This document shows positions 60,981-63,630 of a stretch of 64,000 bases of DNA, piece after piece. Within the stretch, counting starts at the first letter, position 1. Each line of letters begins with the position of its first letter. Source of the DNA: a virus (lineage: Duplodnaviria; Caudoviricetes); IMG/VR virus record IMGVR_UViG_2863389319_000001; one strand, 5' to 3'. Under the pieces are notes generated by a model. The model saw nothing but the letters and a program-made list of their open reading frames with translations, did not search any database and was not told where the DNA came from. The position numbers were made by a program, and so were the translations under genes.

Positions 60981-61706
<726 letters not shown>

Positions 61707-62210
61707 TCAGAGGGCGGTGATGGCGGCACGGATCCCGGCGACGATGTTCTGCCAGACCTGCTCGCGGCTGGCGATGCGGGACTCGCCGTAGCCGTAGCGG
61801 AAGCGGAGCTTGCCGTCAGCGGCATCGAACCAGACTTTCTCGATGGAGCCGAGGATCTTGCTGGCCTGGGAGTTAGAGATGCCCTCGCCCCGATAGGCGG
61901 CGGCGGAGATGTTGCCGCTGTTGTAGTAAGACAGCTCCAGGCCAGCGAGTTCAGTCCAGTTGTTGATGTAGACACGGCACATGCCGTTCTTCTCCCACAG
62001 CTGGCCGCCGATCGCGGTGAGGGTCTCGACGGAGAAGATGACCTTAGCCTTGCGGAGCAGCTTGGGGAGGTTGATGCGGTAGGCGAGGGACGTGGCGTCG
62101 ATGACCCAGCGGCGGCCGGTCTTGGTGGCGGTGATGGCGCCGCGGCGGCACCAGGTGCGGATGGTGGCGACGGTGACCCCGGCCTGCTTGGCTGCGGCAA
62201 TGGTGTCCAT
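61707..62210 (-). CDS. HTH_17/excisionase-like N-domain plus unknown domain; candidate anti-defence protein
   Basis: AAKQAGVTVATIRTWCRRGAI.ATK.GRRWVID; GGAG RBS. Confidence 0.7.
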   Translation of the reverse strand: MDTIAAAKQAGVTVATIRTWCRRGAITATKTGRRWVIDATSLAYRINLPKLLRKAKVIFSVETLTAIGGQLWEKNGMCRVYINNWTELAGLELSYYNSGNISAAAYRGEGISNSQASKILGSIEKVWFDAADGKLRFRYGYGESRIASREQVWQNIVAGIRAAITAL

Positions 62211-62263: not shown

Positions 62264-62292
62264 AATGTAGCGTCCTAATTTAGGACGCGCAA
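62264..62292 (-). promoter_or_regulatory. promoter with inverted-repeat operator for the HTH operon
   Basis: Minus strand TTGCGC-N17-TACATT; GCGTCCTA-ATT-TAGGACGC at 62270-62288. Confidence 0.75.
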
Positions 62293-62386
62293 GCCTGATT
62301 GAACATCAACTCTAATTACCTAGAAGCAATCTGAACTCCTCCGAGTGAAGCGGCCACCATCGGAGCGCCTCCAGTGCTACGGTGAA

Positions 62387-62562
62387 GTCGTCCCCGGGAA
62401 ACCGGGGGTGATCCGTGTGGGGTGTAAGACTTCCATGTGGATGCGCAATCCTCCCCACGCAAGTGGGGGTGACCCGTGCGGGATGTACACCACTCGGGAT
62501 CAGCACTACCTTCCCCACGCAGGTGGGGGTCAGCTTCGCCCCGCGATCGCGGGGATCAGGCC
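62387..62562 (+). CRISPR. orphan type I-E-like CRISPR mini-array (3 repeats, 2 spacers, plus a fourth abutting repeat)
   Basis: 29-nt units GTCGTCCCCGGGAAACCGGGGGTGATCCG (62387), ATCCTCCCCACGCAAGTGGGGGTGACCCG (62448), ACCTTCCCCACGCAGGTGGGGGTCAGCTT (62508), CTTCGCCCCGCGATCGCGGGGATCAGGCC (62534); spacers of 32 and 31 nt. Confidence 0.82.
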
Positions 62563-62592
62563 CCGCTCTCCTTCGGGAGGGCGGGGCCTTTC
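62558..62592 (+). terminator. terminator closing the mini-array transcript
   Basis: AGGCCCCGCTCTCC-TTCG-GGAGGGCGGGGCCTTT. Confidence 0.8.
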
Positions 62593-62624
62593 GTCATACC
62601 CGGATGCCGCTACTATGCTGCCCT

Positions 62625-63611
62625 CTACGCGCTGTACTCGCTGATCGTGATCCCCTTCGAGCGCCACGGCTCCGGCGTCTCGTCAGCATCAGCCAGGCGC
62701 TGCATCCACTCCAACTGCCCGACGAAATAGCTCCAGTACGGGGTGCCGCCATCAACCCCCTTGTCGAATGTCAAGATCGGACCGTCGGTACCCCGCTTCC
62801 CATGCCCGTACAGCATCACCCTCACCGAGTCGTCGACACGCTCAATAGCGAAGCTGCACGGAAAGTCGTACAGGTAGATCTTCAGGTCCCCAGCATCGCG
62901 AGCTGCAGCCTGAGCCAACGGGCGCAGCACCTCCCGCTCATACCTGGCCGGGTCCTCCATCGCGGCCTCTGCCGGCTCCAGCCGGTAGCGGTCGCGGCGG
63001 CTCGCACAGTGCGGATCCATGATGAAGATCCGCACCGGGATTTCACGCGACCTCGCGGTGAAGAGTGGCAGCATCTCGTCGCTGCCGTAGAAGTTCCGGG
63101 TGAGCCCGAACATCGTGATCTGCTGACGTGCGGCACGCAGCCGACTCACCAGGTCTGACTTCGACTCCAAGCCCGTATGTGGGAACAGGTCGGCCACGCC
63201 GGCTTGCTCTAGGTGACTCACCATGGCTCCACTGTAGTCACGGCCGAAGCCGAGGCGGTCCGGCCGCGTGGCGTACACGCGGCACAAGTAGTCAATGCGC
63301 TCGTCGCTGGGACGCCGCTGGCCGTGCTCCCAGCGGCATAGCTCGGCATCACTGATGGTCGGCGGCCGCAGGCCATCGTGCACGTAGGCCAGGTCAATCC
63401 TGGCGCTGAGTTCCGGGCGACTCCACCCTTTGGCCCACCGATGAGCCTCGAGGGGATGTGTCCCTGGGGTGGCCGCGAGGATCAGATCGATCACCTCGGC
63501 GATCGGCAGGCCCTCGCGCAGGCCGTTGATTCTGATGTCAGAGGCAATCCGGTCTGCCCGGCGCCGAGATGCGCGGTCCACGCGTGGAGTTGACGAGGTC
63601 ACAGATCCCAT
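62625..63611 (-). CDS. XRE HTH regulator with C-terminal DUF5919/PLD-like domain
   Basis: HRWAKGWS...LCRWEHGQRRP; IFIMDP, IYLYD.P, RVDD; start placed at MGSVT. Confidence 0.8.
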   Translation of the reverse strand: MGSVTSSTPRVDRASRRRADRIASDIRINGLREGLPIAEVIDLILAATPGTHPLEAHRWAKGWSRPELSARIDLAYVHDGLRPPTISDAELCRWEHGQRRPSDERIDYLCRVYATRPDRLGFGRDYSGAMVSHLEQAGVADLFPHTGLESKSDLVSRLRAARQQITMFGLTRNFYGSDEMLPLFTARSREIPVRIFIMDPHCASRRDRYRLEPAEAAMEDPARYEREVLRPLAQAAARDAGDLKIYLYDFPCSFAIERVDDSVRVMLYGHGKRGTDGPILTFDKGVDGGTPYWSYFVGQLEWMQRLADADETPEPWRSKGITISEYSA

Positions 63612-63630
63612 ATTGACGCATGGCGTCAAT
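63612..63630. promoter_or_regulatory. palindromic operator between divergent start codons
   Basis: ATTGACGC-ATG-GCGTCAAT. Confidence 0.65.

Follow-up and report, generated by a model that had tools for sequence, protein, structure and literature searches.

What is a short series of CRISPR-like repeats doing on a prophage, away from any cas gene? The question is raised by one locus in a 9.57-Mb genome of the Streptomyces family (G000; four contigs, 71% G+C), close to the end of a 64,000-nt stretch of DNA that was analyzed as a whole and is called the window here (G000:C1:1470665-1534664). At positions 62387-62594, on the + strand, the window holds an array of three 29-nt type I-E repeats, two spacers, a fourth hairpin that lacks a spacer, and a terminator. 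Is this array a small immune cassette, a decoy for Cas proteins, a relic, or an anti-CRISPR RNA that carries guides of its own?

Prophage setting

A siphovirus-type prophage occupies most of the window, which encodes a DnaB helicase, a 1458-aa tape measure protein, a pectate-lyase-like tail spike, and a GH25 endolysin. Phage structural, lysis, and replication genes are found around the array, which lies on virus DNA outside a CRISPR-cas locus. No cas genes are near it, and the Cas6e and Cse1 genes of the genome are about 340 kb off and on another contig. A scan of the window at Rfam gathering thresholds returned no family, a tRNA scan of the window found none, and blastn of the array region against phage records gave no match.

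Two leftward genes come after the lysis genes, followed by 176 nt of noncoding DNA and then by the array on the + strand. The first of these genes (60981-61673, − strand) encodes a 230-aa protein with an Aca2/YdiL-like C-terminal HTH (PF08965, 25.8 bits against a cut-off of 23.8), the best solved relatives of which are all Aca2, with E values of about 2e-3. This protein, encoded two genes from the array, is a possible anti-CRISPR-associated regulator. The second gene (61707-62210, − strand) is the divergent neighbor of the array and encodes a 167-aa protein with an HTH_17/MerR-like N terminus, a homologue of which adjoins the related array of genome G318 described below. Between the HTH_17 gene and the array, the divergent region also contains a perfect 9-1-9 palindrome, GCGTCCTAA-T-TTAGGACGC, at 62270-62288. 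It is likely to be an operator and is possibly one for the Aca2-like protein.

Architecture of the array

A −10-like hexamer, TACGGT (62378-62383, + strand), stands 4 nt before the first repeat, within an upstream block, GTGCTACGGTGAAG, that is identical in the G318 homologue. A sigma-70 consensus scan gave no match; we infer a promoter directly before R1. R1 itself (62387-62415, +) has the stem CCCCGG-GAAA-CCGGGG with a GNRA-type loop, carries the handle GTGATCCG, and is a variant of the repeat lineage designated beta below, to which R2 and R3 also belong. The 32-nt guide S1 (62416-62447, +) is followed by R2 (62448-62476, +; stem CCCCAC-GCAA-GTGGGG, handle GTGACCCG), the 31-nt guide S2 (62477-62507, +), and R3 (62508-62536, +; stem CCCCAC-GCAG-GTGGGG), the handle of which, GTCAGCTT, has decayed and the 3' end of which is degenerate. 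After a two-base linker, CG (62537-62538, +), comes R4 (62539-62560, +), a spacerless hairpin in which the core CCCCGC-GATC-GCGGGG (62539-62554) is followed by ATCAGG. The array ends in a terminator (62558-62594, +) consisting of a hairpin with 14-bp arms and a TTCG loop (62558-62589) and then TTTCG. This terminator also closes the convergent gene at 62625-63629, and in genome G078 the terminator hairpin stands alone, without an array, behind a homologue of that gene.

A repeat finder places the repeat starts 61 and 60 nt apart, which is the canonical type I-E period. The two spacers share a 5' motif (repeat family D2). The locus does not have the makeup of an adaptive CRISPR array, with near-identical repeats, a leader, and cas1-cas2 in the locus: the four repeats differ from one another, with identities of 68-82%.

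An earlier note on this DNA had remarked that the repeats all differ while every stem is compensated and that the last unit has no spacer. Both remarks can be read directly from the sequence, as the 6-bp stems are perfectly paired in all four hairpins, with three different stems in use, and R4 has no spacer. Its statement that repeats 1 and 2 keep their 8-nt handles also holds, the I-E-type handle being intact in these two only. The overlap of R4 with R3 concerns the flank of R4. The R4 core starts after the CG linker, 2 nt past the R3 handle, and ends 3 nt short of the terminator stem; it is the hypothetical 5' flank of a 29-nt R4 unit that would have to overlap the R3 handle, by 3 nt, and there is therefore no spacer before R4. 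A fold of the RNA, which the note had proposed as a check, bears out the four hairpins. In the minimum free energy structure of 62340-62600 all four and the terminator form, with a z-score of −4.9 and none of 200 shuffles folding as well, and the G318 array likewise has a z-score of −4.9.

Two repeat lineages

Two type I-E systems are present in G000, with Cas6e at C1:1133235 and C3:501990 and Cse1 at C1:1128940 and C3:505651. We refer to the lineage of the host's own I-E arrays as alpha and to the lineage of R1-R3, which is found in other genomes of the family, as beta. Alpha arrays of the host have stems such as CCCCGT-GCAC-GCGGGG and CCCCGC-ACCT-GCGGGG and the handle ATGGTCCC. The handles of R1-R3 are of the form GTGAnCCG, and R2 and R3 have CCCCAC/GTGGGG stems; the stem and handle start of these two repeats are those of large, bona fide arrays elsewhere in the family, with hundreds of copies in one genome of the same genus (G308) and further occurrences in several genomes of a second genus. 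R1-R3 combine the subtype hairpin with a 5' handle, both of which match beta-lineage I-E repeats from genomes of the family. G000 has no beta array besides the three prophage repeats and no beta-type Cse1 at an E value of 1e-40 or better.

R4 is different, as its 3' flank belongs to another repeat lineage than R1-R3. Its stem, CCCCGC/GCGGGG, and the A-T that follows are those of alpha repeats, and its handle departs from the host handle after two bases (ATCAGG versus ATGGTC). The Cas6e proteins of the two lineages are only 28% identical. The suggestion in the earlier note that the divergent repeats suit several Cas6e variants is in this respect plausible, since R1-R3 and R4 come from lineages with such different Cas6e proteins.

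Two other elements of the host genome, both outside the window, have host-type repeats. One, at G000:C3:573360-573445, about 55 kb from the C3 cas locus, combines a solitary host-type repeat with a guide-like stretch of 23 nt and, after it, a decayed repeat that serves as a terminator as well. The guide-like stretch gave no target, and the element may be a regulatory crRNA-like gene of the host or of a plasmid. The other, at G000:C1:1115940-1116260, is a short forward array of decayed host-type repeats that abuts the reverse-oriented main array.

Homologous arrays

A DNA search of 166 other genomes of the same genus found one full homologue, in G318, where the array is present in two copies, on C4 and near the end of C1. 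There it adjoins a GH25 endolysin gene and the homologue of the HTH_17 gene and therefore also lies among phage-type genes. The order is R1' (the R1 stem with the loop GAAG), guide 1, R2', guide 2, R3', and an alpha-type hairpin directly after; beyond that hairpin are a guide-like stretch of 20 nt, a hairpin that has decayed, and a terminator. S1 and G318 guide 1 differ at one of their first 14 nt, and the junction of R3 and R4 is homologous as well. Two further genomes, G272 and G398, have the alpha-type half only: a hairpin, 32 nt, a hairpin, 20 nt, a hairpin, and a terminator of the G000 type, with the sequences between the hairpins conserved across these two species.

In Kitasatospora (L049), an array directly behind a large serine recombinase gene starts with an R1 that has the identical stem and GAAA loop and continues with four beta repeats and a terminator. 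When genome contigs were scanned for the exact R1 pattern, only two matches emerged, this locus and one Chloroflexota MAG. R1 is the conserved first hairpin of the array family. In 14 other genomes, the flanking genes have homologues with no array or hairpin cluster inside their 1.5-kb flanks.

Multiple alignment of the array tails places R4 in register with the terminal hairpin of the G318, G272, and G398 arrays, with G000 lacking the 20-nt unit. R4 is the terminal repeat of the family, left once the 20-nt guide was lost, and, as far as the data show, not a purpose-built element.

Several other loci came up in these searches. Solitary repeats in genus g4 (L016, L027) were rejected as homologues because they are empty leader-repeat units, and matches to the R1 stem in IMG/VR phages of 59% G+C (L051-L053) proved to be plain terminators behind a capsid gene. 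In a genome of another genus (G084; L015:1490-1640), a two-repeat, one-spacer I-E mini-array ends directly in a terminator hairpin and may be another guide RNA of a mobile element. Two IMG/VR phages of 45-46% G+C contain an I-E mini-array between late genes (L054:2930-3070 and L055:4460-4600), in which one intact repeat with the handle GTGATCCG is followed by 32 nt, a decayed repeat, and a terminator.

Structural constraint and unit exchange

Between G000 and G318, R2 and R3 each show one A-U to G-C double change that keeps the pairing, whereas the stems of R1 and R4 are unchanged. Every hairpin in the three beta-type arrays is still paired, one of them by way of a G-U pair. This comparison supports structural constraint on the hairpins and agrees with the proposal in the earlier note of selection on RNA structure rather than decay.

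The route to such compensation need not be stepwise. The R2'-guide-R3' unit of the G318 element is a near-exact copy of the leader-proximal repeat-spacer-repeat in the beta array of G318 itself (L056:16436-16520 versus L045:3560-3655, − strand), including two rare repeat variants, and the closely related G346 and G185 loci lack it in their arrays. The unit was therefore presumably exchanged between the mobile element and the host array, and ready-made functional repeats can, it follows, be swapped in. The first unit of the G318 host array was also considered as a conserved regulatory RNA, a candidate that was rejected on its absence from the G346 and G185 arrays.

CreR-type circuits in beta loci

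S2 has a match between cas3 and cse1 in the beta locus of G318, which pointed to a CreR-type unit in this spacer. The unit is antisense and has two hairpins, the first of them repeat-like and followed by the handle TCAGCCG and a guide. Some 195 nt upstream of cse1, an AAG-PAM site agrees with the guide at all of positions 1-14 but position 6. The arrangement recurs in a sample of 30 beta-lineage cse1 loci from genomes of the family (L058-L087; an example unit is at L056:10053-10264), with an antisense repeat-guide unit directly upstream of cse1 in at least 17. Each of these at least 17 loci also has an AAG-PAM target, generally about 190-250 nt upstream of cse1 and in one case at about 440 nt. 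At 13 loci, the AAG site matches guide positions 1-14 with mismatches only at 6 and 12, the positions of the bases that are flipped out by I-E Cascade. The Streptomycetaceae CreR guides are roughly 30 nt long or more.

The I-E CreR of Salmonella is proven, with an AAG PAM and a 15-nt match about 140 bp upstream of casA (bioRxiv 10.1101/2023.03.10.532045). The beta-locus units have the CreR architecture described there. The prophage array is like such a host CreR in its repeat-guide-repeat layout and in the starts of S1 and S2, which are of one sequence family with the cse1-upstream guides of related genomes. It differs in lying far from any cas locus, in having a putative promoter and a terminator of its own, and in carrying two guides in tandem.

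Similarity of the spacers to CreR guides

How close are S1 and S2 to these guides? With guide position 1 as the anchor, spacers were compared with 19 CreR guides and scored at 12 constrained positions. S1 scores 9/12 and S2 10/12, the best match of S2 being the CreR guide and promoter target of G185. The first guide of the G318 element reaches 9/12, best against the CreR of G318 itself, and the first Kitasatospora guide reaches 10/12 and equals a CreR throughout positions 1-5 and 7-12. As controls, one of 181 natural beta-array spacers reaches 9 and none reaches 10, and shuffling the mini-array guides 4000 times gave 26 scores that reach 9 and two that reach 10. The CreR guides of the G318, G346, and G185 clade open with close variants of one motif, of which S1 and S2 are further variants, and the two spacers would share their 5' motif because both copy the same regulatory guide family.

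The likeness is significant against these controls, but the matches are interrupted. S2 agrees with G185 at positions 1-6, 8-11, and 13, with a mismatch at position 7, and S1 agrees with G346 at positions 1-6 and 8-11, again with position 7 mismatched. Against G318, S1 has nine consecutive matches, at positions 3-11; against G185, it is mismatched at position 3. Neither spacer has an uninterrupted 9-nt run from position 1. The Kitasatospora relative, equal at positions 1-5 and 7-12, has the likeness expected of the Cracr arrays described below. In Escherichia coli Cascade, seed mismatches such as those at position 7 or 3 weaken binding.

No protospacer for S1 or S2 was found in the prophage-bearing genome itself, in 50,697 INPHARED phage records, or in IMG/VR, and none for S1 in 166 genomes of the same genus. 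Across the same 166 genomes, no beta locus has a CreR or an AAG promoter target exactly equal to S1 or S2. AAG-flanked targets resembling S1 or S2 gave three matches in the genus, none near cas, which is on a par with the reversed-pattern control. Metagenomes and IMG/VR, scanned for the handle together with the start of the guide, returned 82, 69, and 55 loci, of which an upstream-hairpin filter left two, both attributable to chance. The resident host genome offers neither S1 nor S2 a site. Within the host cas region (C1:1122876), S1 has an 11-nt match, which was rejected because it has no PAM, is mismatched at positions 1 and 2, and is expected by chance.

The alpha-type array guides of G272, G398, and G318 gave chance-level matches only against the host cas loci. 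For one of them, a 20-nt guide of G272, the match falls in the first codons of host cas6e, outside the window (G000:C1:1133247-1133266), with a 12-nt run and 15/20 positions in total, no AAG PAM, and a score near chance level.

A probable anti-CRISPR RNA with CreR-like guides

On balance, we consider it probable, with appreciable room for doubt, that the array is a prophage-encoded anti-CRISPR RNA array of the Cracr type. Cracr arrays are phage copies of CreR or CreA guides; once loaded into the Cas proteins of the host, these copies compete with immune crRNAs and make repression at the cas promoter tighter. Often there are two or three guides directed at variants of a single subtype, the last repeat is aberrant, and Acr or Aca genes are encoded alongside, and the published I-E Cracr guides are 21-24 nt long (Liu et al., bioRxiv 10.1101/2024.10.29.618823). 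The array considered here is likewise prophage-borne and without cas genes, with I-E repeat-like units that differ from one another. It has two guides per transcript, the PAM-proximal parts of which resemble CreR guides of variants of one subtype, and it shows an aberrant last repeat with a terminator directly after and an Aca-like gene nearby. It departs from the published examples in its longer guides (32 and 31 nt) and in that no exact cognate CreR or promoter was found for them, the best scores being those of 10/12 and 9/12 given above. Further differences are the resident host, which carries another I-E lineage, the trailing hairpin of that other (alpha) lineage, and the conserved, special first repeat with its GAAA loop.

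In a host of the beta lineage, a short transcript would start just before R1 and stop at the terminator, and a beta-lineage I-E Cas6e would cut it at the base of R1, R2, and R3. Two crRNA-like RNAs would result, in which S1 or S2 lies between an 8-nt handle and a 3' hairpin. Both guides would imitate the start of host CreR guides and, once in Cascade, would compete with immune crRNAs. Cascade loaded with them would bind the cse1 (casA) promoter by some 11-14 PAM-proximal pairs and leave it uncleaved, and so tighten repression of the cas operon, with the two guides addressing two variants of the same I-E lineage. R4, with an alpha stem and no guide, would at most be a decoy that holds Cas6e. 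We infer transcription, processing, Cascade loading, and promoter repression from the makeup of the array. The resident host has neither the beta lineage nor a site for S1 or S2, and the guides therefore have nothing to repress there. In G000 the array could act only through R4 or by cross-reaction, or it could be idle until the phage meets a beta host.

Could the hairpins be all that matters? A transcript with four different, well-paired repeat hairpins could sequester Cas6e and Cascade subunits as a multi-hairpin Racr, the intervening sequence having no guiding role, and the lack of a target for S1 or S2 in the resident host would then be expected. R4 fits such a role best. It is a guideless repeat mimic on a mobile element (62539-62560), with a stem equal to that of host repeats, and in this it is like the RNA anti-CRISPRs of Camara-Wilpert et al. 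(Nature 2023, PMC10651486), where Racrs are solitary repeat units in phages, often beside Acr or Aca genes. Compared with that account, R4 is not solitary, as it stands last in an array that bears guides; its homologue is the terminal repeat of arrays with a 20-nt guide, which makes R4 look like the remnant of a guide-bearing unit; and its handle is unlike that of the host after two bases. A pure decoy is also unlikely given a spacing of 61/60 nt and 8-nt handles that are intact in R1 and R2, both typical of guide-bearing units, the conservation of the start of S1 in G318, and the resemblance of S1 and S2 to CreR guides, far beyond that of natural or shuffled spacers. The decoy idea of the earlier note holds up in part: the array is an anti-CRISPR RNA candidate, and the host-type stem of R4 could plausibly hold the resident Cas6e, but the CreR-like spacers fit a Cracr better than a pure Racr.

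The same spacing and handles could instead mark an immune cassette, by which the prophage would supply crRNAs to host Cascade for the destruction of competing phages. Virus-borne mini-CRISPR arrays, which are reviewed in PMC11656645, resemble the array in their few repeats, their one or two spacers, and their location in virus genomes without cas. IMG/VR phages do contain I-E mini-arrays with a repeat, 32 nt, a decayed repeat, and a terminator; spacer length here is canonical, and one unit of the G318 element is identical to a real spacer unit of its host. The array is nevertheless unlike that class, in that its repeats are not those of the resident host's arrays and its spacers match no related virus in the INPHARED and IMG/VR records. 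With no protospacer in any of the collections searched, and with a CreR likeness of both spacers that competition between phages would not lead one to expect, we regard this explanation as quite improbable. An inert relic, assembled by recombination from pieces of CRISPR arrays and CreR and decaying where it does nothing, would account for a host without a matching I-E lineage, for the decayed handle of R3 and the lost guide of R4, for the failure to find an exact target, and for the 14 genomes in which the flanking-gene homologues have no array within their 1.5-kb flanks. The intact stems with their compensatory changes argue against decay, as do the conserved upstream block and terminator that frame the array and the persistence of R1 and the start of S1 in another species of the genus and of R1 in another genus; a relic is therefore also unlikely.

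Implications

The Cracr reading places the array under a mechanism that has already been published; the array adds a case and does not change the principle. A more far-reaching version, which we hold to be doubtful, is that of a modular, recombining anti-CRISPR RNA platform, in which a conserved R1 entry hairpin is followed by guide units swapped in from host CreR genes and arrays and units of two deeply divergent I-E lineages are joined in a single transcript. If this were true, one prophage could disarm whichever I-E lineage its next host carries.

As a Cracr candidate, the array would add a case from the Streptomyces family to a young class of viral RNAs that hijack Cas proteins, and it would show where their guides come from, namely host CreR genes and host arrays, acquired by recombination. 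What it contributes beyond the published principle are the CreR circuits of the beta lineage, the exchange of a unit with a host array in G318, and the presence of two I-E lineages in one transcript. A by-product of the analysis is perhaps more useful than the array itself. One I-E lineage of the Streptomycetaceae appears to have a widespread CreR self-repression circuit, with an AAG PAM and a match over 14 nt apart from positions 6 and 12, and its loci offer ready promoter-guide pairs. Such a circuit would be relevant to anyone using or fighting native CRISPR in these antibiotic producers.
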